Shown here piece by piece: positions 16,132-38,163 of a stretch of DNA of 64,000 nucleotides. Source of the stretch: Patescibacteria group bacterium (lineage in GTDB: Bacteria; Patescibacteriota; Microgenomatia; Daviesbacterales; UBA10151); contig JAMCSY010000011.1 of assembly GCA_023379125.1 (NCBI GenBank), forward strand, positions 5,333 through 69,332, given 5' to 3'. How positions within the stretch are numbered: the stretch's first letter is position 1; each line of letters opens with the position of its first letter. The translations under genes were made by a program, and so were the position numbers. Under the pieces are notes generated by a model. It did no database searches. It saw only the letters and a list, made by a program, of their open reading frames with translations, and was not told where the DNA came from.

Positions 16132-16155
16132 TCCTGCACTACCTTCTTTAATTTT

Positions 16156-19708: not shown

Positions 19709-19726
19709 GATGTTTCCTCACTTGAT

Positions 19727-20755
19727 TTACTCACTGCGCAAGGCTAAACCAACGGCAATGGTATAGTGAGTAGCATTTTCCAAAAGTTTAGCTTGAATTG
19801 AAGCATCTTTTTCAATAAAGTACCAAGGATCAGCTTCTTGAATTTCCAAGCCTAGTTTATTAGCAAAAAAGATTACTAAGCCAGGTAGTTTAGCTCCACC
19901 TCCAGTTAACACCACTCGTTTAATTTGATTCTGGGGGAACTTATTCTCAAAAGCCTGAACAACCCTACCAGATTCAGTCACAATCAGATCCACTAAAGGC
20001 TCTAGGACCTGATAAATTTTGCCACCTAATTGGTCTTGTAGTAAACCATATACTTTTTTATACTCCTCAGCTTGCATCATCTCAAAGTTTAAGTATTGGG
20101 CAATAGCTCTGGTTAAAGCAATTCCGCCGGTTGAGATAGAACGCGTTAACAAAATCATCCCCTTTGAGACCACTGCAAAGTCAGTTGAGGAAGCTCCAAG
20201 CTGCACAATCATAGTGGTTGGAGCATAAGGATTTCCCCCAACTAAAGCCCTAGTAGCCGCAATTAACTCAGTTTCCATCGCCATCGGTTTCAGTTGAATT
20301 TTACTCAAGACTTTGAGGTATTTTGCGACAGTATTTTTAGGTGATGCCACCACAAAAACTGTCGTATTATTGCGTTGCTTACTGCGGTCCATCACTTGCC
20401 AGTACAAATTAACCTGATCTGCTGGTAAAGGTACAAATTCTTCAGCTGAGTATTTAATAGCTGAAGCTAGTTCATCATCAGATAGATAAGGAAGATCACC
20501 AATTACCCGAGTGAAAATTCGTGATTCCGGTAAAGCCACTACAACTTCCTGCGGGGCTTTTAAAGCTTCCATTAAACTCTTAATTGATTTACTGACAGCA
20601 TCCAGATCTAAATCAAATTCTGAATTCATCCCAGGTTGGGGAGTGGGAGTAGAACCAAAAGAGACTAAACGTGGAGTCTTGGCTTTGTGAGATAAAACTA
20701 CTGCTTTAATGGAAAAACTTCCAATATCTATTCCAGTTACATAATCGGCAGCCAT
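19727..20755 (-). CDS. pilM: Type IV pilus assembly ATPase-fold protein PilM
   Basis: 342 aa; actin-like GIDIGSFSIKAVVL, VQLGASSTDFAVV. Confidence 0.8.
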   Translation of the reverse strand: MAADYVTGIDIGSFSIKAVVLSHKAKTPRLVSFGSTPTPQPGMNSEFDLDLDAVSKSIKSLMEALKAPQEVVVALPESRIFTRVIGDLPYLSDDELASAIKYSAEEFVPLPADQVNLYWQVMDRSKQRNNTTVFVVASPKNTVAKYLKVLSKIQLKPMAMETELIAATRALVGGNPYAPTTMIVQLGASSTDFAVVSKGMILLTRSISTGGIALTRAIAQYLNFEMMQAEEYKKVYGLLQDQLGGKIYQVLEPLVDLIVTESGRVVQAFENKFPQNQIKRVVLTGGGAKLPGLVIFFANKLGLEIQEADPWYFIEKDASIQAKLLENATHYTIAVGLALRSE

Positions 20756-20851
20756 ATATAATTTGGATGTTCACACTCATAGTACACGACATTATTTGAG
20801 TGTCTATATCTATTTAAATATGTCTAATCTCAAAATGCAAGAATTGAAAAA

Positions 20852-22651: not shown

Positions 22652-22661
22652 TGCTCTAGAC

Positions 22662-23228
22662 CTACATATTTCTTAAAGTCACTGAAACTTTGGATGTCCT
22701 TTGTGAACTAACTTGACCTGTTTGGGCTAAGACTGTCAAAGAAACCTCGACCACACTGGCTGAAACAGGCGTTACTTGATTACCATTCTTATCATAAAAC
22801 TTATATTGGACATTATCGAGTAGGGTAGTAAGTACCTGATTAGTTGACTTACGACTACTTTGTGGATCGGGAAAAATTTGCATTCGCAGAATGTTGGGAT
22901 TTGTGGGATCGGTTGAAAAAACTACATAGTCATAAGTATCTGGAATAATTTCAGTAGGACCTTCCGAGGCCAGTTTCAAAACCAAAACATGACTACTGGT
23001 AACAAAACTAGGAGTTGCTTCTGGATATCCAGTAGCTACTGCTGAGGCCTGTCTAATCATTGAAGTTAAATTATCCATCGTGTCATTAATGTTTACTCCC
23101 TCGTTAATTACAGCACCTTGTTTGAAAAAGAATCCATTTGAATTAACCAATATACTTATTAAAAAAGTCCCCACCACTAAACCAATCGCGGAGACAATTA
23201 TGACTTCTAGTAAAGAAAAACCTTTCAT
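22662..23228 (-). CDS. Minor pilin (prepilin-type N-terminal cleavage/methylation domain)
   Basis: 188 aa; MKG|FSLLEVIIVSAIGLVVGTFLI. Confidence 0.65.
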   Translation of the reverse strand: MKGFSLLEVIIVSAIGLVVGTFLISILVNSNGFFFKQGAVINEGVNINDTMDNLTSMIRQASAVATGYPEATPSFVTSSHVLVLKLASEGPTEIIPDTYDYVVFSTDPTNPNILRMQIFPDPQSSRKSTNQVLTTLLDNVQYKFYDKNGNQVTPVSASVVEVSLTVLAQTGQVSSQRTSKVSVTLRNM

Positions 23229-23234
23229 AAGCAG

Positions 23235-23666
23235 TTATTGTGCTAATCCACCTTGACTAACAATTGTAGATAAATCTACCGTTTTGTCATCGCCAGATTC
23301 ATTCCAAGCCACACTGACTGTAACTATTTTTGCTTTTTCACCATTTATACAAGCAGGCTCCTGACAATCATTAACTGTGTAGCTGGCTGTTGACTTGGGT
23401 AAACTAGTTAAATCAGGGTCAGTGAAATTATTTGTGCCATTGGAGAGTGAATCATAAGAAAGTTTACGTAAATACTCCAATTCTCGAGTAGCAATATCCT
23501 TAGCAATTGAGGAATGACGACTACGGTTAATTGAGGACACAGATGAGGGTAAATTAGCTACTAGTAGAGCCAAGGCAGCAATAATAACTGTCACTAGAAC
23601 TAACTCAATTACTGAGACTCCTTGTTCAAGATATTTTTGATGTTTATTTTGGGCAGTAAAAACCAT
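23235..23666 (-). CDS. Minor pilin (prepilin-type, PilV-like)
   Basis: 143 aa; QG|VSVIELVLVTVIIAALALL. Confidence 0.6.
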   Translation of the reverse strand: MVFTAQNKHQKYLEQGVSVIELVLVTVIIAALALLVANLPSSVSSINRSRHSSIAKDIATRELEYLRKLSYDSLSNGTNNFTDPDLTSLPKSTASYTVNDCQEPACINGEKAKIVTVSVAWNESGDDKTVDLSTIVSQGGLAQ

Positions 23667-23696
23667 CTTTTTGTTATAAGTATTAGGTCTATTCTT

Positions 23697-24665
23697 TTAT
23701 TTGGTTAAATCACCATTGGAAAAGAGTACATAATCCATAAATGGAGGTAATACATCTTTGTCCTGAAAAATCTGCAGCACTCTTTTTGAATCACCAGACA
23801 CTCCTTCAGATTTAAAAATATGGGCCTGTAAAGGAATAGAATATCCAGAAGGAGGTTCTATCCCCACTGGCTGGCTATAAGCAGTAGAAAAAAGCATTCT
23901 GGCCCTAATCATTAAGGGTGTATCTGCATCATTGTGTTTGATTCCGGCTGCCTGTGACATATTTAAATTAACCTGACAGTAAAATTGCTCAGTTGTAGTG
24001 CCGTCATTAACTGGAATTGGAGCCACAGACGAGCCCCAAACATTACATCCAGAAAAACCAGTAGTATTTGTTCTGGCAGCTGCGCAAGTAGGGTCATTTT
24101 TACAATAGGAGTCGTAATATTTCCTCACAACGTAGTAACCACCGGTGGTATCGCGAAAAGCCATCGTTAGTTCCAATCCAGGTTGCTGTTCCAAATTACT
24201 ACTATAATCTTGCAGATCACCAAAATACAAAGTTAACAAATTACTTTTGCAAAGCATTGGTTTACCGTCTGTGGCCATATAGCCACAGTTTAAATCAGAC
24301 GTAGTAGGATCCACTAACCAAAATTGAGCTACCTCGTCTTTATTCAGTGGAGGAACTGCGAGTGCTGTACCTGTCACAGGAATATCAACTTGCCACTTCA
24401 CATTAGCTAAAGCAGTATTGCCAAAATTTGTGGTAAAAGTATTACTGGAAACACCTGCTCCAACGCTTTCCTGTAAAGCCTTTTCTAAACCTGCCTCTGC
24501 AGCAGCAAAAGCTCGTGAGGAATTTTCTGCTTTGGTAGAATTCGAAATTTCCGTAGTACTACGGCTGATAATCGATAGAGCAATTGCCAATATCACAACC
24601 ATCACTAGCAGCAAAATTACTACTACTTGGCCTGTTTGATTGAGTTTTAAATAATTTTTAATCAT
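23697..24665 (-). CDS. PilX_N-domain pilus assembly protein
   Basis: 322 aa; N-terminal TM + AFAAAEAGLEKALQE motif. Confidence 0.55.
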   Translation of the reverse strand: MIKNYLKLNQTGQVVVILLLVMVVILAIALSIISRSTTEISNSTKAENSSRAFAAAEAGLEKALQESVGAGVSSNTFTTNFGNTALANVKWQVDIPVTGTALAVPPLNKDEVAQFWLVDPTTSDLNCGYMATDGKPMLCKSNLLTLYFGDLQDYSSNLEQQPGLELTMAFRDTTGGYYVVRKYYDSYCKNDPTCAAARTNTTGFSGCNVWGSSVAPIPVNDGTTTEQFYCQVNLNMSQAAGIKHNDADTPLMIRARMLFSTAYSQPVGIEPPSGYSIPLQAHIFKSEGVSGDSKRVLQIFQDKDVLPPFMDYVLFSNGDLTK

Positions 24666-24713
24666 CCCCTGATTCCATCGTATAACAAAACTACTTACAG
24701 CGGCAATTTATTG

Positions 24714-25430
24714 CTAAAACTGTGAGCCTCTGACCATTACTGATGTCTCAAATTGCACACCACTACTATTAACACTTGATTCGAATACTTGACCAGCTGA
24801 GATAGCTTCCTTCACCGCATATCTGATTAAAATCACATCACGATAACCCGAGCTAGAAACTGGCGTAAAAATATTTGCACCCGAAGACTCTTGTACAAAA
24901 GATACTCCATTTTTTAGATCATTAGGATCGCTGAGGTTGATTAAAGTACCAGAAACTGGTGATGTGCACAATTCACTATCTGAGTAGGGAAGTGAGGTAT
25001 CGGAATGAACAGGGATATCAGTAAAATCTTCCCGTGAGATATAGCCATTAGTGCTGACGGTGGGAGAGTGATAGGCAAATTTTGTATACAGTCCACTGGT
25101 AGAGCTGTCTGATGAAAGACCATGCACAACAATAGTTTGACCATCACCACTGATACACATGACTTGCTGAGATTCTCTAATTGTTAAACTCAATTTATCC
25201 ATTACTGATTGACCATTTTGTTTAACCTGATTTAAAGTCTGGACTTTGTTTTCTCCCCGCAGAGTCTGTAGCAAAATATCAGAAATAATAATCATAATCA
25301 CCCCTAAAACAGCAACAGCAACTAACATCTCCACTAAGGTAAACCCAGTATTTACACATTTTAATCCTGTATTATTCTGTCCCCTGTGTAAAAACTTCAG
25401 ACCAGATTTGATACTCCTGTTAATTTGCAT
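24714..25430 (-). CDS. Minor pilin (prepilin-type, PilW-like)
   Basis: 238 aa; NTG|FTLVEMLVAVAVLGVIMIII. Confidence 0.65.
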   Translation of the reverse strand: MQINRSIKSGLKFLHRGQNNTGLKCVNTGFTLVEMLVAVAVLGVIMIIISDILLQTLRGENKVQTLNQVKQNGQSVMDKLSLTIRESQQVMCISGDGQTIVVHGLSSDSSTSGLYTKFAYHSPTVSTNGYISREDFTDIPVHSDTSLPYSDSELCTSPVSGTLINLSDPNDLKNGVSFVQESSGANIFTPVSSSGYRDVILIRYAVKEAISAGQVFESSVNSSGVQFETSVMVRGSQF

Positions 25431-25434
25431 CTGT

Positions 25435-26088
25435 TTATTGTTGGTGATTTGTCAAAACTGTTTGTAAATTTGATTCATGGTTACCGACAGCATCAGTCCA
25501 ACGCACCCTGACTACCACATCCTTCTCGTTATTAGGTTGTTCTGGTGGGTAGCCTGAGTCATATTTATCATAAATAAAAATTTGTCTGGAAAAGCCCGGA
25601 TCCAGCCCTGTATTGTCCCAACTGGCAGAAGAATCATGAATTTCTTGCAAGCTCACTGATAAAGGGTTAGCCAAGTAAAAATAACAACCCAGAGTACCAG
25701 AAACTGCTTTATCAGTATCAGGCGGTGTAATACTACATAAATGATCAGAGGGATCACTTAACACTCGATTCCATAATTCCGAAAAGGGGCAACTGGAGCC
25801 AGTACAAGACCCTCCACCAGTGAAGGTATCTGCACCCCACAATTCTACTGAACCATCCCGATCTCGCACTGCCTGGATTTTTTCAATTGCATCCTGAGCA
25901 TATTTGGTTGCCTTAGCTTGATTTTGGGCAAACTGACTATTATGCAGGCTGTTGATTACAGCAATCGCCAAACCCGTTAAAACTACAGCTGTAATTGCCA
26001 AAACGATTAGGATTTCCACCAGACTCTGCCCCTGTTGAGCTGTTTTCATCTCTTTTTTCCCAGAAAGTTGCCTTTCTAAAAAAGGCAT
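25435..26088 (-). CDS. Pilin-like protein (prepilin-type N-terminus)
   Basis: 217 aa; QQGQ|SLVEILIVLAITAVVLTGLAIAV. Confidence 0.6.
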   Translation of the reverse strand: MPFLERQLSGKKEMKTAQQGQSLVEILIVLAITAVVLTGLAIAVINSLHNSQFAQNQAKATKYAQDAIEKIQAVRDRDGSVELWGADTFTGGGSCTGSSCPFSELWNRVLSDPSDHLCSITPPDTDKAVSGTLGCYFYLANPLSVSLQEIHDSSASWDNTGLDPGFSRQIFIYDKYDSGYPPEQPNNEKDVVVRVRWTDAVGNHESNLQTVLTNHQQ

Positions 26089-26183
26089 TACCTTATTTCA
26101 CTATATGGTGAGGTCTGCAATCTTGTCAATGAATTCCAACTTCTTAATCAGGATTTGGGGCTGTTATCCTAACAAAAAAAGGA

Positions 26184-26870
26184 TTATGGGCAATCTGTGG
26201 CAGAGATACCACCACCCTTGTCAACTATAACGCAAGCCGTATATCCTGCACCGTGAGTTTGCCCCAGCTTGATGGTTGCCTTAGTCCAATCATAAGTAGT
26301 AGGTGACCCACAGCCAATGACAGCATCGGCAGTAATGTTGCTGTATTGGATTTTAAAGTCATTAATGGGCTGGTCATAAGTAAGTACCGAATTACTACAC
26401 GTTACGTTTAATACATTAATTGAGGTAGGAAAGGCATACGCAGCCAAAGGTTGTGGTGTAGGCAAAGGGGGATTGGTAGTATTGGCACATTCTGGCACTA
26501 CTTGAAAACTATAACTAGGCGGGGTACCCCCAGTTACACTTAATACAACATCCCAGCTCGAAGCTTTGTTTTTGGCATCAGCACTAAAGCCACCTTCATA
26601 AGTTGGATCACAAACCACACCACTGGCTGCATTATTTTGAGCTGTCCTGAGTGCTGTTTGTAGCTGAGTCGAGGTATTGTACAAATCTTGAGTATTATTA
26701 AAAACAGTGTACTGAGGAATTAAAATAACAGCAATCGAAGCCATAATACTCACCACAACTAGTAATTCAATTAAAGTAAAACCAATACTCGTATGTCTTA
26801 ACTTTGCCGGTGACTTTCTTTGGCAAAATGTCAAACTTAGATTGATAACAAAAGTAGTAATTTGTGGCAT
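26184..26870 (-). CDS. Pilin-like protein (prepilin-type N-terminus)
   Basis: 228 aa; SIG|FTLIELLVVVSIMASIAVILIP. Confidence 0.65.
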   Translation of the reverse strand: MPQITTFVINLSLTFCQRKSPAKLRHTSIGFTLIELLVVVSIMASIAVILIPQYTVFNNTQDLYNTSTQLQTALRTAQNNAASGVVCDPTYEGGFSADAKNKASSWDVVLSVTGGTPPSYSFQVVPECANTTNPPLPTPQPLAAYAFPTSINVLNVTCSNSVLTYDQPINDFKIQYSNITADAVIGCGSPTTYDWTKATIKLGQTHGAGYTACVIVDKGGGISATDCP

Positions 26871-26908
26871 TAACTAAAAAATAACATGGTTATATCATTA
26901 AAGTCATC

Positions 26909-27388
26909 TTAGGGACCAAGTTCTATATTACACTGAGTTGTACCAGCAGAGAGGCAATTTTGAGTCTGACAACCAGCAACTGTTGTAGGATATGACTGAT
27001 CACCCTCTTTGAGAGCGCATAAATAAAAAGTAGTACAGTTGCGATCATAAGTTGTACAACCACTTGGCAAAGAAAAATATTTATAAACCCTGTTGGTGCT
27101 AGGCGAAGGATCAGCGGGAATATTTGGTAAGTAGACAGGCACCATCTGTGCAGCAAACTCTGATGTTCCGGGATAAGAATGATTAACATTGCGATAAAGC
27201 TCCAGTGCTTGTTTCATCGAACCCAAATCTTTCATCCGTGATTGATCACGAGTGTTCTTCATGATATTAGTATAAACTACCGCGCCCACAGCCACCAAAG
27301 TAGCAATAATCGTCATCACAGCGAGCAATTCTACCAGAGTTAGTCCTTGCTGAAGTTTGTTGTTTAAATGTGTTTTATGGATAATCAT
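26909..27388 (-). CDS. Type IV pilin
   Basis: 159 aa; QQG|LTLVELLAVMTIIATLVAVGAVVY + NTRDQSRMKDL. Confidence 0.65.
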   Translation of the reverse strand: MIIHKTHLNNKLQQGLTLVELLAVMTIIATLVAVGAVVYTNIMKNTRDQSRMKDLGSMKQALELYRNVNHSYPGTSEFAAQMVPVYLPNIPADPSPSTNRVYKYFSLPSGCTTYDRNCTTFYLCALKEGDQSYPTTVAGCQTQNCLSAGTTQCNIELGP

Positions 27389-27885
27389 TGAGGTACTACC
27401 CCAAAATTATAATTAGTAGTATCTGGAGAACAGACAGTTGAGCTTGAGGGAATACTACCTTCTAGCTTGGCACAAAGGTAATATTTGGTACAGTAGTTGC
27501 TCGAGGAGTTGTCACAACCAGCTGCACCTGAAGCATTTTGGGGAAAGTAAGCATAACTTGGCGCTGATTGCGGATCATTGGGCACCTTAGACATATAAGT
27601 CTTCGTTCCATCCGGATTGGTAATCGCTCCTCCGCCGATTAAAATAGTTGCAGGGTAGTAGTTCTGATCTGCATGATATTGTTCAATTGCTGCTTGAATA
27701 TTTCTTAAATCAGACTCTCTTTTAGCATCACGTCCATTCCTTTGTACTGAAGAAAAAGAGATTACAGAAATTGTTGCCAATACCGCAATGATGGAAATTG
27801 TCACTAATAGCTCGATTAAAGTAAAACCGAGGATTTTAGAAGTAGGCATTAACTTCAAGTTAGCATATCTTAGTCCGAGCATCAA
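27385..27885 (-). CDS. Type IV pilin
   Basis: 166 aa; ILG|FTLIELLVTISIIAVLATISVISF + GRDAKRESDLRNIQAAIEQY. Confidence 0.7.
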   Translation of the reverse strand: MMLGLRYANLKLMPTSKILGFTLIELLVTISIIAVLATISVISFSSVQRNGRDAKRESDLRNIQAAIEQYHADQNYYPATILIGGGAITNPDGTKTYMSKVPNDPQSAPSYAYFPQNASGAAGCDNSSSNYCTKYYLCAKLEGSIPSSSTVCSPDTTNYNFGVVPQ

Positions 27886-29469
27886 GTGAGAGTTGACTTA
27901 TTTGTAGGGAAGCTAATAAAGTTGATAAAGTTATTTATAATTAAAGTGATCACCAGACTTATTACTCGTTATCAACTTATTTTTCTCTTTCTCAGCTTGG
28001 CAATCTTTATTGCAATATGCCTCAGATTTTTGCTAGTTTACCCAGCTGTTTGGCCTGATGAGGCAATTTATGCTGATATTGCCAAGCATTATTTAGCACA
28101 AAACCGTTTGGGAACTGATCTTTGGGGAAACACTATTCCAGGCATTCATGACCATGCTTACTGGTACCCACCAGTTTTTTTCTTTTTGATAAATCTTTGG
28201 ATTAATATTTTTGGAGTTAATATTCAAACGCAAAGACTGCTGTCTGTTTTAGCTGGAGGAAGCCTCCTGGTGGTTGTCTATTTGCTCACTAAGCAACTTC
28301 TACAGAAACATTCTAAAAAATCTTTGTTTCTTGTGTTATTTTCTATTTACCCTGTTTTTCTACTCATCAGCAACGCTCGGTACCTTAATGGGGCAAAGGT
28401 CAGCAGACCAGAGATTTTTCTGCTTTTCTTTGGCCTGGTTGCTGTCTATCTTTACCTTTCTCCTACTTTACATAAATATAAAACTTTACAGCCTATATCT
28501 GTTGGTTTTTTAATGAGTTTATCTTACTTAACTCATTTTATTGCTTTTTTCTTTCCACTCGCTGTTGTTATTCATCGTCTTGTCATACACAAAAAAATGA
28601 TCTTGCGGGATAAATTCTTCTATTTATTCTTAGTAGCTTTTCTTATTCCTATCATCTTATGGTTAATTAGTATCTACCCTGATTACAATATCCTATATGA
28701 ACAAGTGAGGTTAGCGATTGATCAAAAAGTAAATACTGGAACCACAATGTGGATCCATATGTATTTAAAGCTCAATAATCTACCCACTCTAGTAAATTAT
28801 TTTATTTATATATTTTTAACTTGGGAATTCTGTTTTGCAGTCTTGGTCAAAAAACAGGCTACCTATTATTTCTGGGCTATTATACTAGTCCTAAGCTGGG
28901 TATTTTCGCTTTATGGTCGGATGTCCTGGTATGTTTTAATTCCTTTGCCTTTTTTAGCGATCACACTATCAATTTACGCTCATGATAATATTCAGCAGAT
29001 TAAAAAACCATTCTTGTCAGCACGTAACTATTATCAGCTGTTGATTATTAGTGGGGTGTGTCTGGTATTAGTTTTAAGTATCGTTGATTTAGTCAGTAAT
29101 TATGATATTCAGTATTCTAATCAAGATTACTATACCTTCGGACAACAACTAAGCAATTTTATCCCTCAAGACAAAAAAGTATTATTAATCTCTTTACCTG
29201 ATGCCTATTTTAGTCTAGAAAAGCAAGGGTATTCCTTGTATGAATTTCCAGTCTTACCAACTTCCCGACAAAATATTGCTGAGCTTGTTAATCAAGCAGA
29301 CTACGTAGTTTTAAATTATCGCCTTGGAACAAGTGATTTTATTGATTATATTAATCCCTATTTACAACTCAACACTCTTGCTAGTACGCGTATTGGCACA
29401 ACATCGGGATATCAAGCCACCGTTATTGAATTAAAAAACAAGAATGAAAGAACCGAACCCCAACAGTAA
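27886..29469 (+). CDS. GT-C fold glycosyltransferase, PMT/ArnT-like (GT39/GT83-like), polytopic membrane protein
   Basis: 527 aa, more than 10 predicted TM segments; first-loop WPDEAIYADIAKHY resembles the DE catalytic motif of PMT_2/ArnT family. Confidence 0.55.
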   Translation: MRVDLFVGKLIKLIKLFIIKVITRLITRYQLIFLFLSLAIFIAICLRFLLVYPAVWPDEAIYADIAKHYLAQNRLGTDLWGNTIPGIHDHAYWYPPVFFFLINLWINIFGVNIQTQRLLSVLAGGSLLVVVYLLTKQLLQKHSKKSLFLVLFSIYPVFLLISNARYLNGAKVSRPEIFLLFFGLVAVYLYLSPTLHKYKTLQPISVGFLMSLSYLTHFIAFFFPLAVVIHRLVIHKKMILRDKFFYLFLVAFLIPIILWLISIYPDYNILYEQVRLAIDQKVNTGTTMWIHMYLKLNNLPTLVNYFIYIFLTWEFCFAVLVKKQATYYFWAIILVLSWVFSLYGRMSWYVLIPLPFLAITLSIYAHDNIQQIKKPFLSARNYYQLLIISGVCLVLVLSIVDLVSNYDIQYSNQDYYTFGQQLSNFIPQDKKVLLISLPDAYFSLEKQGYSLYEFPVLPTSRQNIAELVNQADYVVLNYRLGTSDFIDYINPYLQLNTLASTRIGTTSGYQATVIELKNKNERTEPQQ

Positions 29470-29475
29470 AATTAG

Positions 29476-31404
29476 ATGAATACAACAAAAATACTAGCCA
29501 CAATCAAAAATAAGTGGGTACATTTATTTTGCCTAACATTACTAGTCCTAATATGTTATTTAGGAATTTTACAAAATGGTTTTGCTTGGGATGACGAGGA
29601 TTTTTTTCTGAACTGGCCGACAATCAAGGACAGCCAGGAAATTTCTGCTGTTTTAAGTATACCTGACCTGCTAGCAGGTTCTTTACCTTCCAATCATCAA
29701 GGTGTTTATCGTCCAATTAGAAGTGTATACTATCTGGCTAGTTACAAAATCTGGGGAGAAGACGCTTTTGGATATCACTTACAAGCCATCATTGTTCATC
29801 TGTTGGTCGTCCTCCTTATCTATTTTATTACCGAAGAAATATTCAAGCAGCGACTTCTCGCTTTTCTATCGGCAGCCTTTTTCGCTACCCATCCTATACA
29901 TACAGAGGCAATTAGTTATACTGCAGCTAGCTTAGATTCTCTGGGGATACTTTTCTTCTTCGCCGCTTTTTATTTTTATTTACGATCAACCAATTCAGTG
30001 AAAAGAAATATCCCAGCTATAATTTTATCAATCATTTATACAGGTTTAGCTTTTTTTACCTACGAGATGACTCTGGTTCTTCCAATCCTGATTGTTTTTT
30101 ACGATTATACTTTTAATTTTCTCACCAGGGAAAATTGGCGTCAGCGACTATCAGTATACAAACCTTATTTGTCTTTATGGTTATTCTATTTGGTAGTGAG
30201 ATTTCTGTGGCTACAAATAGGGGACAGAGCTGATTATTTGGGTAACGGTATGTTATTAGTTGCCCAACAGGCCAGAACTGCGATTTTGGTTATTTATGCT
30301 CACTACCTATCTTGGTTAGTCTTACCACTGCATCAAAATATCCTACCCAACATCAACCAATCCTCGAATCTGGATATCTTAGCTTTTGTTAATAAATTCA
30401 GGGCAGGTCAGCTCACTTCTGTAATAATCGACTATTCAGCTTTAATCCCTGTTTTCTTTCTAATAAGTGGAATACTAGCTACGTTATTCTTACTAAAAAA
30501 GCATAAATTAGTAGCTTTCAGTCTTGGCTGGTTATTGATTTCACTTACTACCGTTTCCAGTATTCTTCCTCAAGGTGCACCAATTGCCGAGCGCTATCTC
30601 TATATTGGATCCTTTGGTTATACACTCATTCTAGCTTTTTTAGTAATCTATATATCTCATCTGACTCCAAGAGTGTTAAGGATGGTCATCAAGGGCTATA
30701 TCTCCCATACCTCTTTTTTATCATATAGTCTTATAGTTTCAGCTAGTCTTGCAATCGTTGTCTCCTACACATACCTAACTATTAATCGCAACTTTGATTG
30801 GCATAATTACCAAAGTCTGTGGGAAAGTGTAGTTCGAGAGGACCCGAATAACTCTTATGCCTATGAAGGATTAGGCTATCAAAGCTTTGAAAGAGGTAAT
30901 ATAAATGAAGCAATTAATTTATACCAAAAAACTATTAGTCTTAACCCACAACAAACCCGCGCAAGAACTAATCTGGCAAGCGCCTATATTAAGCAGCAGC
31001 AATATGACTTAGCGTTACAACAACTCCAATTGACTTTGGATATTGATACTAATAATCCAATCGCCTATGAATTATGGGGAGACATCGCAATGGTTCAAAA
31101 AAACTACAAATTGGCGATCGAAAAATATCAACAGGCGTTGCAAATTGCGCCACAGTATTCCTTCTATAATGCCAATTTAGGATCAGCTTACGAACAAAAT
31201 GGCCAATACCAGCAGGCTTTGACCCAGTACCAAACAGCCATCTCTCTTAACCCCAACAGTGCTGACTATTATTACCATATCAGCAATATTTATTATCACT
31301 TAGGTCATCAGGATTTGGCAATTCAAGCTATAAATTTATCTTTGGAGTTTGACCCTAATAATAATATAGCTAAAGAATTAAAAGAACTTTTGCAAAATCA
31401 ATGA
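29476..31404 (+). CDS. TMTC-like membrane glycosyltransferase with C-terminal TPR repeats
   Basis: 642 aa; N-terminal polytopic domain with FAWDDEDFF (DD motif as in TMTC/DUF1736 O-mannosyltransferases); C-terminal 200 aa has at least 5 TPR-like repeats (AYEGLGYQ.., AYELWGDI.., NLGSAYEQNGQYQQA..). Confidence 0.55.
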   Translation: MNTTKILATIKNKWVHLFCLTLLVLICYLGILQNGFAWDDEDFFLNWPTIKDSQEISAVLSIPDLLAGSLPSNHQGVYRPIRSVYYLASYKIWGEDAFGYHLQAIIVHLLVVLLIYFITEEIFKQRLLAFLSAAFFATHPIHTEAISYTAASLDSLGILFFFAAFYFYLRSTNSVKRNIPAIILSIIYTGLAFFTYEMTLVLPILIVFYDYTFNFLTRENWRQRLSVYKPYLSLWLFYLVVRFLWLQIGDRADYLGNGMLLVAQQARTAILVIYAHYLSWLVLPLHQNILPNINQSSNLDILAFVNKFRAGQLTSVIIDYSALIPVFFLISGILATLFLLKKHKLVAFSLGWLLISLTTVSSILPQGAPIAERYLYIGSFGYTLILAFLVIYISHLTPRVLRMVIKGYISHTSFLSYSLIVSASLAIVVSYTYLTINRNFDWHNYQSLWESVVREDPNNSYAYEGLGYQSFERGNINEAINLYQKTISLNPQQTRARTNLASAYIKQQQYDLALQQLQLTLDIDTNNPIAYELWGDIAMVQKNYKLAIEKYQQALQIAPQYSFYNANLGSAYEQNGQYQQALTQYQTAISLNPNSADYYYHISNIYYHLGHQDLAIQAINLSLEFDPNNNIAKELKELLQNQ

Positions 31405-31435
31405 TTTCTTAGAAAGATAAGTAGTAGAGAAGAAA

Positions 31436-31858
31436 TTACTGAGCGTTCCTCTTACAGAACCAGTTTCCAGAAGTAGTAGCACCCCCACCCACACTAGTGG
31501 TTGCATTACCTGTTGAGTTTTCCAGTGAAGCACAGAAAACAAAGCCATTAGAAGAATTAAATGAGGTAGCATAATTAGCACCACCAGGAGAAGGATTAGT
31601 TGGTACTGTTTGATCAGAAAACCAAGTCCCGTTTAATGATGTTGGATAACCAGAACCAGAAACATAATTGGCTTCCATTGCTCCAGCCATGGATTGAATA
31701 TCAGCCTTTCTTTTGGCATCTCGCGCTTTATTTAAAGTTCCAGTATAAATAGTAATCCCGATAATACCTAAGATTGCCAAGATTGAAATAACAACTAACA
31801 GCTCAAAAAGTGTAAAACCTTGAGAGTTATTTTTAGTTCTAGGCAAAAATTTTGACAT
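31436..31858 (-). CDS. Type IV pilin, tandem paralog A
   Basis: Preferred start MSKFLPRTKNNSQG|FTLFELLVVISILAILGIIG (the ORF-track start at 31930 overlaps paralog B); C-terminal Cys pair; Ser/Thr-rich segment with NST/NAT. Confidence 0.7.
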   Translation of the reverse strand: MSKFLPRTKNNSQGFTLFELLVVISILAILGIIGITIYTGTLNKARDAKRKADIQSMAGAMEANYVSGSGYPTSLNGTWFSDQTVPTNPSPGGANYATSFNSSNGFVFCASLENSTGNATTSVGGGATTSGNWFCKRNAQ

Positions 31859-31859
31859 A

Positions 31860-32282
31860 TTATTGTGCATTCCTCTTACAATACCAATTACCAGAAGTAG
31901 TAGCACCTCCACCAACACTGGTAGTAGCATTACCTGTTGAATTCTCTAGTGAAGCACAGAAAACAAAACCACTCGAAGTATTAAAAGAAGTCGCATATGT
32001 GGCACCACCAGGAGAAGGATTAGTTGGAACTGTTTGATCAGAGAACCAAGTAGCATTTAACGATGTTGGGTAACCAGAACCAGAAACATAATTAGCTTCC
32101 ATAGCTCCAGCCATTGCTTCTATATCTGCTTTTCTCTTAGCATCTCGAGCTTTATTCAAAGTTCCAGTATAAATAGTAATACCAATAATACCTAATATTG
32201 CTAATATAGAGATTACTACCAAAAGTTCGAAAAGTGTAAAACCTTGAGGATTTGAATTTGTCTTGGGCAGTAGCTTTTTCAT
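31860..32282 (-). CDS. Type IV pilin, tandem paralog B (about 90% identical to A)
   Basis: Preferred start MKKLLPKTNSNPQG|FTLFELLVVISILAILGIIG; the mature N-terminal about 45 aa are identical to A. Confidence 0.7.
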   Translation of the reverse strand: MKKLLPKTNSNPQGFTLFELLVVISILAILGIIGITIYTGTLNKARDAKRKADIEAMAGAMEANYVSGSGYPTSLNATWFSDQTVPTNPSPGGATYATSFNTSSGFVFCASLENSTGNATTSVGGGATTSGNWYCKRNAQ

Positions 32283-32323
32283 TTCTTGATCTATATTTAC
32301 TTTTGCATAACTAAAATATCTTG

Positions 32324-33250
32324 TCAAGAACCAATTTTCAGGCTAGTAATATACCAATTTATTATTTTTGCACCAAATAACAAAGCAGTAAAAGCACCCA
32401 AACTCAGGAAAGGACCAAAGGGAATTGTTTGCCCAAAATGTCTCTTTTTAAAAGCCATCAGCAGCAAAGCAATCACTGCACCGCTAATAAACGCCAAAAA
32501 GATAGCTAAGACTATATTAGGATAACCAAGTGCCAAGCCTAGTAGAAAAACATACTTAACGTCACCCCAACCCATCCCACGCCCTCTTGTGATTACAATT
32601 AGGAAAAAGAAAACGAGAGCTGAAATTACTGCTGCACCTAGGCTCCAAGCAGCATCCATCACAATTCTTTGGATATTATCAGTCAGGTAAGCAGAGTAGG
32701 GAGGCATCAAGTATTTTCCAAAAGGAATCAAAACTACTTCGTGATAAAAATTCCAAGAAACTAAAACCGTAGTTAAAATTAGATATATCAGAGAAATAAT
32801 CATAGCTGGATAAGTAATTCGATCAGGTATTATTCCCAATTTCAAGTCAGTCAAAAAGATAATTGCTAAAACTGTGACGATGAAACACCTAAATAGTAGG
32901 TCAATTAAAAGTAATAAATGTGGGATATCGGCAATAAAAATTTGCTCTAGGTGAGTAGGTAAGGTCGCTAAAAAAACCAAGGCAATCAGTATACCCATTA
33001 CTAATTCAGCTAAAAAATTACCCAGAGGGATTTTTCGATGACAAAACCGGCAGTGTCCACGCAGGATTAAAAAGGAGAAGACAGGGAAAAGGTCGTACCA
33101 TCTAAGCGTTTTTTTGCAACTTTGACAATACGACCTTTTTTTAAATGATACCTTTTCCTGGATCCGATCAGAGGTTGCTTTAGCAAAGCTTCCTAAAATC
33201 GTTCCCAGAACAAAACCCAGTAGCCACATCTTAAACCCTATTGTATCCAA
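32324..33250 (-). CDS. pilD: Prepilin peptidase (A24 family)
   Basis: 308 aa; N-terminal CxxC..CxxC (CQSCKK..CRFCHRK), about 8 TM segments, A24 architecture. Confidence 0.8.
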   Translation of the reverse strand: MDTIGFKMWLLGFVLGTILGSFAKATSDRIQEKVSFKKRSYCQSCKKTLRWYDLFPVFSFLILRGHCRFCHRKIPLGNFLAELVMGILIALVFLATLPTHLEQIFIADIPHLLLLIDLLFRCFIVTVLAIIFLTDLKLGIIPDRITYPAMIISLIYLILTTVLVSWNFYHEVVLIPFGKYLMPPYSAYLTDNIQRIVMDAAWSLGAAVISALVFFFLIVITRGRGMGWGDVKYVFLLGLALGYPNIVLAIFLAFISGAVIALLLMAFKKRHFGQTIPFGPFLSLGAFTALLFGAKIINWYITSLKIGS

Positions 33251-33290
33251 ACTGTTACGTTCTCACAAGAGAACTAACAGTACCCAAACC

Positions 33291-33851
33291 TTAATACGCG
33301 CAAGGTGTACCAGCAGCTGTGATTAAGTTAAGGTTAGAACCAACCTCATACAAAGTATCCTGATCACCACCATCTGTGGCCATCTTGCCCTTTTGTTGAT
33401 CTGATTCCAGAGCAGTATCAATTTCCCAAGAATCAGTGGAACCGACAGTATCAGATGCACAATATGTGTAGTGATAGTCTGTACTGTTGGTAGGATCGGC
33501 GGGTAAGGTAGGTATCGAGACACTCTTTTGGAGACTCAAATTTACTTTCACCCAACCAGAACCGTTAGAATTCCTCACGTTTGCATCTGTGTCATCACTG
33601 TGACCTACACAGGTGTAGTTAGAACCTGATGTACCACAAAGAATTTGACCACCGGAAGCTGTTGCCTCCTGAACTGCAACGTTAATCGCTTGCTGAAGAT
33701 TTGCTAAATCGGTTAGTCTAGCAGCATCACGGCTTCGTCTGGTTAATTCTAACGGATTAATAATCAGCACTACCACAGCTGCAAGAATTGCAATAATTGC
33801 AATGACCACCAATAGCTCTACCAAGGTAAACCCACGGGCAGTTTTCTTCAA
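33291..33851 (-). CDS. Type IV pilin (candidate major pilin), TTG start with strong SD
   Basis: 186 aa; MKKTARG|FTLVELLVVIAIIAILAAVVVLI + SRDAARLTDLANLQQAI; GAGGGGGTGAGGT 5 nt upstream of TTG. Confidence 0.7.
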   Translation of the reverse strand: MKKTARGFTLVELLVVIAIIAILAAVVVLIINPLELTRRSRDAARLTDLANLQQAINVAVQEATASGGQILCGTSGSNYTCVGHSDDTDANVRNSNGSGWVKVNLSLQKSVSIPTLPADPTNSTDYHYTYCASDTVGSTDSWEIDTALESDQQKGKMATDGGDQDTLYEVGSNLNLITAAGTPCAY

Positions 33852-33892
33852 ATTTACCTCACCCCCTCTCAGTAGTTTAGTTCATAACTTAT

Positions 33893-34113
33893 AGTTAGTA
33901 GTTCATAGATCGGCTGAACTATGAACTGCAAATAATGAACTTATTACTAATCTTATTGTTGACATAGCTGAAAGTTTTAGTCAAGTGTTTAACTTATTTA
34001 AATACATACCTAATATTATGAGTTTAGTAACATTACTTTCAACAAGAAGATACCGCGCTAACGTCAGCCAGTGGTAGATTCTTTGTTGACATAGCTGAAA
34101 GTTTTAGTCAAGT
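33893..34113. promoter_or_regulatory. Pilin upstream control region: two copies of TTGTTGACATAGCTGAAAGTTTTAGTCAAGT (inverted half-sites TTGAC-N16-GTCAA) plus a cluster of GTTCAT/ATGAAC half-sites
   Basis: Exact 31-bp direct repeat at 33956-33986 and 34083-34113; GTTCATA x2 and ATGAAC x2 between 33893 and 33950; located 100-260 bp upstream of the pilin start at 33851. Confidence 0.5.
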
Positions 34114-34132
34114 CCTTTAGTTTTAGCAAAAC

Positions 34133-35341
34133 TTACTGAATATTAGTAGTGAGCTGGTAAATGGGCAAAATAATTGATATCACTAAAAAGGCCACCCCCA
34201 CACCCAAGATTACTAAGATGATAGGTTCAATTAAGGTTGTTACATTTTTAAGTTGATTATCTGACTCTGTCTCAAAATAGTTTGCCAATCTGATCATAAT
34301 CTCATCAATTTTACCAGTCTCTTCGCCAGTCTTAATCATTTGTCCCACAATCCTTGGAAATACTGGCATAGCCAGTATTTGGCTAGAAAGAGTTAAACCA
34401 CGTTCAACTCCTTTATATGCTGTTTCTAAACCACTTTGAAAAACACTATTTCCTACAATTTCTCCGACAATTTTAATTGATTCCAAAATCGGAATGCCAG
34501 AAGAAGCAAGTAAGCCAAAAGTACGAGTAAAATTGGTTAGCGTTACTAAAGTAACAATCCGTCCAACTACAGGCAGTTTGAGAACGACTGTATCATATTG
34601 ATATTTACCGCTCGGAGATTTGATATAACGGCGAAAAGTTAAGATCCCTACCACTAAAATAAGCAGAATTATCCACCAGTAAGTCAACATGAAGTTAGTG
34701 AAGGCAAGCAATATTTTGGTCGGTAGTGGTAAATCTAAGCCAGAATCTGTATAAAGATTCATCAGCTTAGGCATCACGAAAAAGATCATAATCAGCATCA
34801 CACCAGCCATCATCAACAACACAACGATTGGATAAATCATGGCTCCTCTGATTTTGCTACGGAATTCACGATCTTTCTCCAAGTTATCAGCAAGTTGCAA
34901 AAGTACAGTATCCAACTTACCGGAGGCTTGACCAGCTCTGACTAATTTACTATAGAGTTTAGGAAATACCTCTGGGTATTTTTCCAGGGAAGTCGCAAAA
35001 TCCATTCCACCTTTGACATCATTAGATATTTCACCAATAATTTTCTGAAAGTTCTTGTCAGACTGCTGCTCTTGTAAAATATCCAGAGCTTCAGAAAGCA
35101 CTAAGCCTGCTTCTACCATCGTGGCTAACTGCCTGGTAAAAACCACCACATCTGAATAAGCCACTTTGGAGAAAAACTTTTCAACAAAATTATCTTTATT
35201 AGTATTTTTAACTTTCAGTGAAATCACAATTAATTTTTTGCGGCGGAGGAGGGTAGCCGCTTGACGATCATCGGTAGTCTCAATTTCTCCTTTGTGATAA
35301 CTGCCAGTCAAGTCTTTGGCAATGTAATTAAATATCGGCAT
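34133..35341 (-). CDS. pilC: Type IV pilus inner-membrane platform protein PilC (GspF family)
   Basis: 402 aa; two GspF repeats, 3-4 TM segments. Confidence 0.8.
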   Translation of the reverse strand: MPIFNYIAKDLTGSYHKGEIETTDDRQAATLLRRKKLIVISLKVKNTNKDNFVEKFFSKVAYSDVVVFTRQLATMVEAGLVLSEALDILQEQQSDKNFQKIIGEISNDVKGGMDFATSLEKYPEVFPKLYSKLVRAGQASGKLDTVLLQLADNLEKDREFRSKIRGAMIYPIVVLLMMAGVMLIMIFFVMPKLMNLYTDSGLDLPLPTKILLAFTNFMLTYWWIILLILVVGILTFRRYIKSPSGKYQYDTVVLKLPVVGRIVTLVTLTNFTRTFGLLASSGIPILESIKIVGEIVGNSVFQSGLETAYKGVERGLTLSSQILAMPVFPRIVGQMIKTGEETGKIDEIMIRLANYFETESDNQLKNVTTLIEPIILVILGVGVAFLVISIILPIYQLTTNIQ

Positions 35342-35346
35342 AATTG

Positions 35347-36396
35347 TTAGACTAGTTTGGCCAATAGGTCTGGACGGAAGCTGTAGTTTAAGGCTGTATT
35401 AAAATCTACCTCACCTTCTTTGACTAGATTAGCCAGAGAGGTTTCCAAACTAATCATTCCTTGTTCACCAGAAGTTTGAATTAAGTTATCAATTAAATGA
35501 GTTTTTGATTCTCTGATTAAGGCTGGCAAAGCACTGTTTCGTAGTAGCAACTCAACAGCTAGTTTTCTACCCGGAGTTATCGTGGGCACTAGACGTTGTG
35601 AGACAATTGCTTCTAGGGTAGCAGCAAGTTGCAATCTAATCTGCTGCTGCTGATTTTGTGGAAAAACATCGATCATACGGTCTATCGATTGAGCTGCAGA
35701 GTTAGTATGAAGAGTTGCTAAAACCAAGTGGCCAGTTTCAGCAATAGTAATTGCTGCCGCAATAGTTTCTGGATCACGCATTTCACCAATCAAAATTACA
35801 TCAATATCCTCGCGCAACACTGCCCTTAAAGCACTATCCCATGATTTAGTATCTAAATACATCTCTCTTTGAGAAATGATCGATTTACCCTTTGCATAGA
35901 CATACTCAATAGGATCTTCAATTGTCACAATATGAGCTGATCGTTTGGAGTTAATTTTATTAATAACCGCAGCCAAAGTAGTGCTTTTTCCTTGACCATT
36001 AGGGCCAGTTACCAAAACAAAACCTTGATGTAAATCAATTAGTTTATTAACTGCTGGAGGCAAACCTAACGTTTCCAATTCAGGAATTGCCAGAGGAATC
36101 ATGCGCAAAGATGCACCCATTTGGCCCTTTTGACGATAAAGATTTGCCCTAAAACGAGCTTTATCTTCAAAAGAGAAACCAAAATCTAATTCAAAATTTT
36201 TCTCAAATAATTGCTTTTGAGTAGGAGTTAGTAGCTGAAAAACCAAACTAGTAACATCAGGGTCAGATAACGCAGTAGAGCCTGCCACTTGTACCAGCTC
36301 ACCATGAATACGAATCATTGGTGGGTAACCAGCCAAAAGATGTAAGTCTGACGCCCGTCTTTCAATTGTAATCTCAAGTAGCTGTCTGATATTCAT
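35347..36396 (-). CDS. pilT: Twitching motility ATPase PilT
   Basis: 349 aa; ASDLHL, GPNGQGKSTT Walker A, GEMRD, His box TLHTNSAAQSIDR. Confidence 0.85.
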   Translation of the reverse strand: MNIRQLLEITIERRASDLHLLAGYPPMIRIHGELVQVAGSTALSDPDVTSLVFQLLTPTQKQLFEKNFELDFGFSFEDKARFRANLYRQKGQMGASLRMIPLAIPELETLGLPPAVNKLIDLHQGFVLVTGPNGQGKSTTLAAVINKINSKRSAHIVTIEDPIEYVYAKGKSIISQREMYLDTKSWDSALRAVLREDIDVILIGEMRDPETIAAAITIAETGHLVLATLHTNSAAQSIDRMIDVFPQNQQQQIRLQLAATLEAIVSQRLVPTITPGRKLAVELLLRNSALPALIRESKTHLIDNLIQTSGEQGMISLETSLANLVKEGEVDFNTALNYSFRPDLLAKLV

Positions 36397-36462
36397 ATAA
36401 TTTCTATAATTTAATGCACTATAATTATTGTTATCATTTCCAACTTCAAAAGCAAAGGGTCT

Positions 36463-38163
36463 TTAATCTTCAGCCACCCTTAAGACCTCTTCCAAAGCAG
36501 TAACACCTTCCAAAGCTTTGAGATAACCATCTTGTTTGAGAGTAATCATCCCTTCCTCAATAGAAACATCTTCTATTTTTTGGCTCGAAGCTCTTTCCAG
36601 AATCAGATTCATAATTTTATTTGAAACCACTAGCACTTCAAAAATACCAATCCGCCCTTGGTAACCAGTATTGCCACACTCAGCACACCCTGCACCTTTA
36701 TATAGTTTAATTGCACGCTCAGGCGAAAGCAGTTTACCAAGTACTCCTCTGATATTTTGCACTACCTCATCTGGTGGGGTATACTCTTGTTTACACGAAG
36801 GACAAATCTTACGCAAAATCCTCTGGCCAACCACACCATTGATTGAAGATGCGAGCAAGAACGGTTCCATACCCATATCTAAAAGTCTGGGCAAAGCTCC
36901 AGCTGCAGTATTAGTATGCAGAGTAGAAAAAACTTCGTGGCCAGTCAAAGCTGCTTGAATTGCCAAATCAGCTGTTTCATTATCACGAATTTCACCTACT
37001 AACATAATATTAGGATCTTGGCGCAAGAAAGATCTTAGGGCATCAGCAAAGGTTAAGCCAATTAATGGGTTAACTTGCACTTGGTTTGCACCAGGAATGC
37101 GATACTCGACAGGATCTTCAACTGTTAAAACATTAACCTTAGTGGTAGATAATCTTGTGAGAATAGAGTAGAGGGTAGTTGTTTTACCAGACCCAGTTGG
37201 TCCACAAATCAGAATAATGCCGTGCGGTCTGGTAATTTGTATATCGAGATTCTTCAAAGCAGTACCTCTTAAACCTAGCTCCTGCAGAGTTGGAGGTGTG
37301 ACTGATTTTGGTAAAAGCCTCATCACTACTTTCTCGCCATAAATAGTAGGCACTGTGGATACACGCAAATCATAAATTGCTTTTCCAGAGGTATAGCTAA
37401 AACGTCCGTCTTGAGGTAGTCTTTTTTCCTCAATCTTCAGATTAGACAGAATCTTAATTCGGGAAACTAGTGCATCATGAACTCCACGCGGCAAAACCAC
37501 TTTTTCGTGCAGAATTCCATCAATCCGATACCTTACTCGAGTGCGATCCTCCATAGGTTCAATATGAATATCTGATGATTTAGTGCGGACAGCATAATCA
37601 AGGAGTTGACTTATAATATTAGCAACAGGTGCCTCACGGATAATTTCTGCTTTTTCTTCTTGTGGTTCTTCATTTTTCTGAAAAGAGGAAACTTCTTCCA
37701 AAGCGGAAGTGACTTCAGAAGTTAAATTCTGGGCATATTGTTCATTAACTGATTTAGCAATATCCTCTGGTAAAGCCAGATAAGGCTTGATAAAAAGCCC
37801 TGATTTTTTTTCAATAAATTGAATTACCTGCAAATCCAGTGGATCTTCCATCGCCACAAACAACTTGTCAGCTTTTTTATCAAAAGGCATGAGGTGGTAA
37901 CGCCTTGCCACAGCCTCAGGTACATAATTTAACACCTCAACAGAAACTCCTTTGCCTTCTAAGCTAATAAAGGGAACTCCCAGCAGCTGAGCACGAGCTG
38001 CTCCAATTTTAGATGGAGGAACTATTTGGTGCTGGAGGATAATTTTCTCAACTGGTTGGCCACTATTAATAGCTTCTAACTTAATTGCAGAGAGTTGACT
38101 TGCGTTAATCGCTCCCTGCCTGTAAAGAATATCTTCAATCCCAACTTGAGCAGACTGTGGCAT
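36463..38163 (-). CDS. pilB: Type IV pilus assembly ATPase PilB (GspE family)
   Basis: 566 aa; GPTGSGKTTT, tetracysteine CPSCK..CAECGNTG zinc motif, GEIRD. Confidence 0.85.
   Translation of the reverse strand: MPQSAQVGIEDILYRQGAINASQLSAIKLEAINSGQPVEKIILQHQIVPPSKIGAARAQLLGVPFISLEGKGVSVEVLNYVPEAVARRYHLMPFDKKADKLFVAMEDPLDLQVIQFIEKKSGLFIKPYLALPEDIAKSVNEQYAQNLTSEVTSALEEVSSFQKNEEPQEEKAEIIREAPVANIISQLLDYAVRTKSSDIHIEPMEDRTRVRYRIDGILHEKVVLPRGVHDALVSRIKILSNLKIEEKRLPQDGRFSYTSGKAIYDLRVSTVPTIYGEKVVMRLLPKSVTPPTLQELGLRGTALKNLDIQITRPHGIILICGPTGSGKTTTLYSILTRLSTTKVNVLTVEDPVEYRIPGANQVQVNPLIGLTFADALRSFLRQDPNIMLVGEIRDNETADLAIQAALTGHEVFSTLHTNTAAGALPRLLDMGMEPFLLASSINGVVGQRILRKICPSCKQEYTPPDEVVQNIRGVLGKLLSPERAIKLYKGAGCAECGNTGYQGRIGIFEVLVVSNKIMNLILERASSQKIEDVSIEEGMITLKQDGYLKALEGVTALEEVLRVAED

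Follow-up and report, generated by a model that had tools for sequence, protein, structure and literature searches.

Why do two genes for predicted membrane glycosyltransferases lie inside a type IV pilus cluster, on the strand opposite to the pilus genes, and what would they modify? The question is raised by a 64,000-nucleotide stretch of DNA (contig JAMCSY010000011.1, positions 5,333 to 69,332, of assembly GCA_023379125.1 from a Patescibacteria group bacterium), referred to here in its whole length as the window. It carries a complete type IV pilus (T4P) cluster at positions 19163-38163, in the order PilB, PilT, PilC, a conserved pilin, PilD, two tandem pilins, the slot that holds the two genes in question, eight pilin-like genes, a protein of 599 amino acids (aa), PilM, and PilN. 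All genes of the cluster are on the - strand except the two in the slot, here called GT1 (27886..29469, +) and GT2 (29476-31404, +). A first-pass annotation of the window had located two open reading frames (ORFs) there, on the + strand between the minor-pilin block and the tandem pilins, and had proposed that they form a pilin O-glycosylation module; the placement is correct. Both ORFs are intact, with a gap of 6 nucleotides between them, and the best explanation of the arrangement is a two-gene accessory operon inserted antisense in the T4P cluster of a Microgenomates-type Patescibacterium beside a specific pilin allele. We infer that GT1 and GT2 glycosylate the adjacent pilin, in a manner similar to TfpW, a pilin-modifying enzyme of P. 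aeruginosa; this is the best explanation of their function, and we hold it with moderate confidence.

GT1, GT2, and their predicted membrane topology

GT1 is 527 aa long when read from its GTG start; the NCBI product, named 'glycosyltransferase family 39 protein', is 507 aa and begins at the GTG at 27946. It matches Pfam PMT_2 (E 3e-9; 37.7 bits against a cut-off of 26.1), and its AlphaFold2 model (pLDDT 91) has ArnT as its best structural match in the PDB (5f15; E 4e-8, TM-score 0.57), followed by AglB, ALG12, PglB, Pmt4, and AftA. When PDB sequences were searched with a profile of the GT1 family, a weak ArnT match was returned (5ezm, E 0.066). Eleven transmembrane (TM) helices are predicted, after which comes a C-terminal alpha/beta domain of ~115 aa. 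The motif WPDEAIY, quoted in the first-pass annotation, spans W56-Y62 (28051..28071, +) and contains the predicted catalytic pair D58-E59; D58, E59, D64, R117, R174, and H217 are invariant in 37 homologs.

GT2 (642 aa) is named 'tetratricopeptide repeat protein' by NCBI and combines a membrane module with a C-terminal tetratricopeptide repeat (TPR) domain. The module (residues 1-440; 29476..30795, +) is a TMTC/TfpW-like GT-C domain for which 11 TM helices are predicted, and it too scores above the PMT_2 gathering cut-off of 26.1 (E 1.4e-8, 35.5 bits), which together with the ArnT match of GT1 bears out the earlier assignment of both proteins to the GT-C class. The DD(E) motif FAWDDEDFF (F36-F44; 29581..29607, +), again present as quoted, directly follows TM1. 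D39 and D40 are invariant in 71 homologs, and R79, H139, P140, E197, P284, S379, E372, and Y376 are likewise invariant in the family alignments. At least five repeats had been counted in the TPR domain (residues ~441-642; 30796..31404, +; TPR_2 E 2e-28); Pfam finds five TPR_2 stretches, and the AlphaFold2 model (pLDDT 92.9) has 12 helices between residues 445 and 641, forming ~six hairpins. A structure search with GT2 was dominated by TPR proteins, and a profile of its membrane module had no match among PDB sequences. By profile-profile alignment, the module and the GT1 family are homologous (hhalign probability 97.5%, E 7e-12), with D40-E41 of GT2 paired with D58-E59 of GT1, and E197 of GT2 with H217 of GT1. 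GT1 and GT2 are both polytopic glycosyltransferases of the GT-C fold, a function predicted from their sequences. Neither has a Pfam match to a Wzy_C/O-antigen ligase domain, the kind of family to which the first-pass annotation had allowed that they might instead belong.

TM helices were assigned from the AlphaFold2 models, and sidedness from the Lys/Arg bias (the positive-inside rule). The predicted inside short loops of GT1 contain 19 Lys/Arg in 61 residues versus 4 in 23 for those outside, and each predicted inside short loop of GT2 carries Lys or Arg and almost no acidic residues. The topology predicted from these models has both N-termini inside and the acidic motifs, the C-terminal domain of GT1, and the TPR domain of GT2 outside: loop 48-112 of GT1, with its acidic motif, is predicted to be extracytoplasmic, and the TPR domain of GT2 follows the eleventh TM helix, which is predicted to run from inside to outside. 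The catalytic motifs of both proteins map to the first extracytoplasmic loop, in keeping with the periplasmic or extracellular placement that had been envisaged for them.

The adjacent pilins and the distribution of the cassette

The pilin gene next to GT2, pilA1 (31436..31858, -; N_methyl E 1.5e-7), encodes the proposed acceptor, a 140-aa prepilin with the leader MSKFLPRTKNNSQG cleaved before FTLFELL. The ends of GT2 and pilA1 are 31 nucleotides apart, the genes being convergent, and the adjoining of GT2 and a pilin is kept in six other loci. Its tandem paralog pilA2 (31860..32282, -), also 140 aa, shares 91% protein and ~88% DNA identity with it and has the same C-terminal loop; many of the DNA differences look synonymous, and the leaders are much more divergent than the mature parts. 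The first-pass annotation had described Ser/Thr-rich tails on these pilins. The segment, ENSTGNATTSVGGGATTSGNW, is present in both, five residues before the C-terminus, but it is not a free tail: it lies inside a disulfide-bounded C-terminal Cys-Cys loop. In pilA1 this loop, CASLENSTGNATTSVGGGATTSGNWFC (31454..31534, -), is the proposed glycosylation site and has 25 residues between the cysteines, 9 Ser/Thr, and 2 N-x-S/T sequons.

Pilins beside GT2 have exactly two cysteines around 24-28 residues (eight pilins in six loci, plus one locus found separately, L117), in the pattern C-x-x-L-E-N-S-T-G-N-A-T...G...(F/Y)-C, with 5-10 Ser/Thr and 1-2 N-x-S/T sequons. In 14 of 16 loci without the cassette, the orthologous loop is 1-16 residues long (9-16 in all but one), with few Ser/Thr and almost never a sequon. 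When the search was started from the pilin itself, the 63 cluster representatives at >=50% identity all had the long loop, with a median of 26 residues, and the median among weaker matches was 10. An N-x-S/T sequon is present in the loop of 62 of these 63 pilins, as GNA[ST] in 46; because such sequons are near-invariant, O-linkage is only an assumption here.

The slot order (minor pilins, GT1/GT2, pilin, PilD) is found in five other lineages, represented by loci L004/L005, L006/L007/L015, L011, L016, and L017, across which GT2 is 38-49% identical and the pilus backbone genes only 45-60%. This recurrence in related genomes, conservation being a point raised at the outset, makes the arrangement more than chance. 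The slot is kept despite rearrangement, GT1 being inverted in L006, and the L016 cassette adds a methyltransferase, a family-2 glycosyltransferase, and a 689-aa membrane protein. L117 has two pilins, a GT2 ortholog (42% identity), a family-2-like gene, two methyltransferases, and a pilin, in that order. The membrane part of GT1 is missing from the L117 cassette, and the GT1 of the window shares only 28-31% identity with its counterparts in other cassettes embedded in pilus loci; GT1 may be an interchangeable partner. On the other flank of the cassette, GT1 is transcribed divergently from the last gene of the minor-pilin block, a pilin gene at 27385..27849 (-) with N_methyl and weak T2SSG matches, whose orthologs adjoin the cassette in other loci too.

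Pilus loci were also sampled independently of the transferases, with the conserved 599-aa protein as the marker. The GT1/GT2 pair is absent from all 15 sampled loci that cover PilD through the marker, none of which has a gap able to hold it, and the pair is thus an accessory insertion in a minority of lineages. That the cassette-bearing loci might be a single clade was considered and rejected: they are not grouped in neighbour-joining trees (without support values) or by pairwise identity, whether of the 599-aa protein or of PilM, the median identity among cassette-bearing loci versus that to cassette-free loci being 52 vs 53% for the former protein and 61 vs 66% for the latter. Since the backbone genes do not unite these loci, the pilin allele and the cassette appear to travel together. 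The long loop occurs in 7/7 cassette-bearing loci and in 3/17 cassette-free loci, or 6/20 by a conservative count (Fisher p 3.5e-4, or 1.9e-3 conservatively, with no phylogenetic correction). Furthermore, 11 of the 63 long-loop representatives are on contigs equal in size to contigs with GT2 homologs, the linkage having been confirmed directly for L117.

Precedents, proposed role, and competing explanations

TfpW (AAM52060.1), the group IV pilin accessory arabinosyltransferase of P. aeruginosa Pa5196/PA7, is a GT-C protein of 646 aa whose N-terminus is cytoplasmic. It has 11 TM helices, depends on a DDX motif in periplasmic loop 1, and carries a large TPR domain in the periplasm; the best template for modelling it was ArnT. 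The gene for TfpW lies immediately beside pilA, is necessary and sufficient for O-arabinosylation of pilin Ser/Thr, and is part of a cassette of pilin allele plus accessory gene with a patchy distribution; pilin glycosylation in P. aeruginosa guards against pilus-specific phages. Compared by description, GT2 is of near-equal size (642 vs 646 aa) and likewise has 11 TM helices, a first-loop DD motif, an outward TPR domain, and a pilin gene next door, and by analogy TfpW, not only eukaryotic TMTC, is its closest functional precedent. The systems also differ in several ways. The TfpW/Emb-type motif YX6PFX7P was absent from both GT2 and GT1 in a regular-expression search that included relaxed forms. 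TfpW is co-directional with and downstream of pilA, whereas GT1/GT2 are convergent with the tandem pilins; a second GT-C protein, GT1, is present here, and no DprE1/DprE2-type genes for D-arabinofuranose (D-Araf) were seen in this window. The main target of TfpW is the alpha-beta loop of its pilin (Thr64, Thr66); here it is the C-terminal disulfide loop that stands out, and the host is a monoderm-like Patescibacterium.

GT2 had previously been likened to the eukaryotic TMTC protein O-mannosyltransferases. TMTC1-4 (GT105) have 11 TM helices and a lumenal TPR domain, with motifs M1-M7 being DD, SHKSYRP, RxD, KE(T/Q)xxT, DW, PxxP, and ERxxY (PMC7801869, Eisenhaber et al.); they use dolichyl-phosphate mannose (Dol-P-Man) and act on cadherin EC domains, and ArnT is their closest solved relative. 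GT2 has the same layout of 11 TM helices followed by an outward TPR domain and keeps four of the seven motifs clearly, if only the Glu of M4 is asked for: M1 (D39-D40) and M2 (H74, Y78-R79-P80) in extracytoplasmic loop (EL) 1, the Glu of M4 in EL3 (E197), and M7 (E372-R373..Y376) in EL5. The Lys of M4 is replaced by Tyr in the GT2 clade, distant family members having KE; of M3 only the Asp is kept (D154), M6 is partial, and M5 (DW) was not found. At E up to 10, Pfam TMTC_DUF1736, which covers the EL4 loop, gave no match to GT2, and this domain was found in only 1 of 17 GT2-family members, the distant P0118 (E 3.8e-8). Judged from sequence, then, the TMTC-like layout of GT2 is real and strict TMTC membership is not established.

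When set against ArnT (GT83) and bacterial PMT (GT39) proteins, GT1 has the PMT_2 match, the first-loop DE motif, and an outer-face C-terminal soluble domain in common with ArnT; eukaryotic PMTs have a MIR domain, which GT1 lacks. Patescibacteria are not known to make lipid A, and an ArnT-like role for GT1 is therefore unlikely. Other pilin-modifying enzymes, TfpO/PilO, PglL, and Ogt, resemble the present pair in that their genes often lie beside a pilin gene (ogt, which encodes the TPR + GT41 protein of cyanobacteria, adjoins pilin genes in 38% of cyanobacterial genomes), but their folds are unrelated to those of GT1 and GT2: TfpO and PglL are en-bloc transferases of the Wzy_C type, and Ogt is a GT41 enzyme of the cytoplasm with UDP-GlcNAc as its donor. 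Neither of these families was matched by GT1 or GT2 in Pfam.

If GT1 and GT2 do glycosylate the adjacent pilin, a polyprenyl-phosphate-linked sugar would be taken on the outer face of the cytoplasmic membrane, as by other GT-C enzymes, and passed, ahead of pilus assembly, to the globular domain of the pilin while this is anchored in the membrane. The transferase acting on the protein would be GT2, its TPR domain binding the pilin for acceptor recognition as has been proposed for TMTC and TfpW. GT2 would initiate glycosylation in the C-terminal disulfide loop of PilA1 and PilA2, with its 24-28 residues rich in Ser, Thr, and Asn; GT1 would attach another sugar or act at a second site. The result would be a pilus surface masked by glycan, which could alter recognition by phages or hosts, as TfpW and TfpO are seen to do in P. 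aeruginosa.

Several observations weigh against pilin glycosylation, and some of them point to an alternative that we consider possible but unlikely, in which the pair carries out general glycosylation of the envelope or of secreted proteins. It would then modify another surface glycoconjugate or many proteins, and would lie in the pilus locus only because accessory genes are tolerated there. The closest homologs of GT1 (33-38% identity) are in a conserved non-pilus glycan locus that they share with GT2-like TPR proteins, and 16 of the 22 loci with GT1 relatives have no pilus genes in their flanks; with its nearest relatives in such places, the enzyme pair is not intrinsically pilin-specific, and the relationships of these proteins suggest that the GT1/GT2-type pair is a general module recruited to pili. 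The membrane-domain family of GT2 is very large, with 39,961 cluster representatives at E <=1e-3 and 8,239 at <=1e-10, so that chance adjacency to pilins retains some probability, and pilus loci take unrelated insertions as well (an IS66 element in L061, a 4.4-kb insert in L105, a DDE transposase in L006). Long-loop pilins do not always come with the pair: the pilus locus of L116 encodes such a pilin but no transferase, no cassette adjoins the long-loop pilins of L050 and L072, and in L114, L115, and L118 the long-loop pilin is paired with a different, unclassified polytopic protein of 557-570 aa. Also on this side of the balance, no gene for a donor synthase (a family-2 polyprenyl-phosphate-sugar synthase) or a flippase was found among the window ORFs scanned. 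General glycosylation is in turn countered by the neighbourhoods of the closer GT2 homologs, since all those at >=35% identity whose context is visible are beside pilins; by the pilin, since the cassette always abuts the same allele, which differs from cassette-free orthologs in exactly one surface loop; and by the presence of at least three different GT-C types adjoining pilin genes (a weak PMT_2 match was also found beside a pilin in L053).

The two remaining explanations concern the kind of linkage and whether GT2 is an enzyme at all. The sequons of the long-loop pilins, together with the presence of AglB and PglB among the structural matches of GT1, would fit an N-linked system in which a GT-C protein other than STT3 (GT2 or GT1) modifies the pilin loop at the near-invariant Asn of its G-N-A-T sequon. 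We give this little credence: neither GT1 nor GT2 has an STT3 match in Pfam at E up to 10 or a WWD motif, ArnT outscores AglB and PglB as a match to GT1, the PMT_2, TMTC, and TfpW relatives are O- or lipid-directed enzymes, and N-x-T may be kept for structural reasons, for example as an Asx turn. Even less probable, to the point that we would be surprised by it, is that GT2 has no catalytic role, its GT-C module being vestigial, and serves pilus assembly as a TPR membrane protein in the way that PilF, PilW, or Tgl do. Some homologs are named PilF or TadD by JGI, and the TPR region has sub-threshold matches to PilW and Tgl models, but these are generic TPR similarity far below the family cut-offs, and the residues of the TMTC motifs proposed to be catalytic or donor-binding (DD, H..YRP, E197, ERxxY) are invariant in the 71 homologs. 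In addition, GT2 is not needed for assembly, as 15 homologous pilus loci are without a GT2 gene. Pilin glycosylation by GT1 and GT2 thus remains our preferred explanation.

As for the source of the sugar, the first-pass annotation had suggested that the nucleotidyltransferase at 41085-41831 could supply the activated donor. The ORF exists (+ strand, 248 aa, NTP_transferase), but it stands alone between gyrB and gyrA, and the match of its product to GlmU is confined to the uridylyltransferase half at the N-terminus (E 7e-48, positions 2-236 of 447). With nothing to tie it to GT1 and GT2, we rejected it as their donor enzyme; it is most simply read as a housekeeping GlmU-type enzyme. Downstream of it are a 345-aa metallohydrolase-like ORF and an NlpC/P60 protein. 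The related cassettes L016 and L117 include a family-2 or family-2-like glycosyltransferase gene as well as methyltransferases, the family-2 enzyme of L016 being not specifically of GtrB or DPM1 type. Here, the donor-synthesis genes would lie outside the window.

Type IV pili are thought to be central to the attachment of Patescibacteria to their hosts and to life on them, and pilus modification in this group has so far been a matter of software predictions alone. The locus offers a concrete pairing of enzyme and substrate, a bacterial TMTC-like TPR GT-C protein and a short pilin loop. Should pilin glycosylation be borne out, the concept of a 'pilin allele plus glycosyltransferase accessory cassette', which comes from P. 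aeruginosa and includes a role in evading phages, would also hold for an uncultivated phylum far removed from that species; the loop would provide a small model substrate for how the TPR domains of GT-C O-glycosyltransferases choose their acceptors, an open question for human TMTC and TMEM260; and part of a very large, mostly unannotated protein family could be annotated. Should the linkage prove to be to Asn, the pair would represent an STT3-independent membrane route to N-linked protein glycosylation in bacteria, with allele and cassette moving together between Patescibacteria pilus loci. If neither is confirmed, GT1 and GT2 would be two ordinary envelope glycosyltransferases that happen to sit in a pilus locus.

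Other features of the window and of related loci

The eight pilin-like genes of the minor-pilin block occupy 22662-27885 (-) as ORFs; the likely true start of the one beside GT1 is the ATG at 27849, which would make the block 22662-27849. PilD, the prepilin peptidase (32324..33250, -; A24_N_bact E 2.7e-23, Peptidase_A24 E 2.3e-10), is directly upstream of the tandem pilins, and the conserved third pilin (33291-33851, -) lies between PilD and PilC. The 599-aa protein that served as the marker (20852-22651, -) is encoded between the minor pilins and PilM and belongs to no Pfam family. All homologous pilus loci that were found encode it, at 48-62% identity; many of its Gly, Trp, and Tyr residues are invariant, and it is possibly a tip or adhesin component. 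About 10 kb from the main cluster, the interval 7332-9755 (+) contains the gene of a 363-aa protein with the N-methylation motif of prepilins and, behind it, a 435-aa ORF without a family. A tyrosine recombinase (Phage_integrase and a SAM-like domain) adjoins a 235-aa cohesin-domain protein at 48958-50619 (-).

A scan of 27300-32500 for promoters and terminators gave counts no higher than in shuffled sequence, and so is uninformative on transcription units. At 28-30 kb the G+C is lower and the skew T-rich; these features were not taken as evidence of a foreign origin, as both are expected of polytopic membrane genes.

The non-pilus locus that contains the closest GT1 homologs was seen in L001, L112, and L113 (at ~5000-17000 in each) and includes a Crp-type regulator, a divergent TPR/GT2-like protein of 564-585 aa, two methyltransferases, and more genes of GT-C-like proteins; the whole has the look of an island for general glycosylation. 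In L014 (28-6479), a YfhO-like protein, a GT1 homolog, and a 664-aa TMEM260-like GT-C protein (PF11028, E 6.5e-24) are encoded directly beside a pilin and PilC, PilT, and PilB. A polytopic family of 515-570 aa without a Pfam match occurs amid pilin genes in L115 (5917-7608, -), L114 (8041-9732, -), L118 (6913-8625, -), and L061 (1111-2658, +). Its N-terminal LEP(F/T)PD(A/S) segment (LEPFPDASLY in L114/L115/L118) aligns weakly with the first-loop motif of GT1 (hhalign 36%, E 4e-4), and it may be another GT-C-like pilin accessory family. A 250-aa protein of L117 (5055-5807, -) is an apparent fusion, of which the N-terminal half, a GT-A fragment, resembles polyprenyl/dolichyl-phosphate hexose transferases (AglJ 1e-13, below cut-off) and the last ~100 residues show homology to the outer domain at the C-terminus of GT1 (27% over 98 aa, E 5e-12).

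Among the insertions in homologous pilus loci, the IS66 transposase of L061 (5625-7088, +) lies within the minor-pilin block and the DDE transposase of L006 (14481-15554, +) beside the conserved pilin; L006 also has a 23S_rRNA_IVP-family gene (12464-12772, -) between the pilin and PilD. Finally, in L116, from assembly GCA_016198275.1 of a Daviesbacteria relative, the gyrB gene beside the pilus cluster (1-640, -) encodes a 1081-aa product with an intein-splicing domain, whereas the gyrB product of the window is of an ordinary 662 aa.

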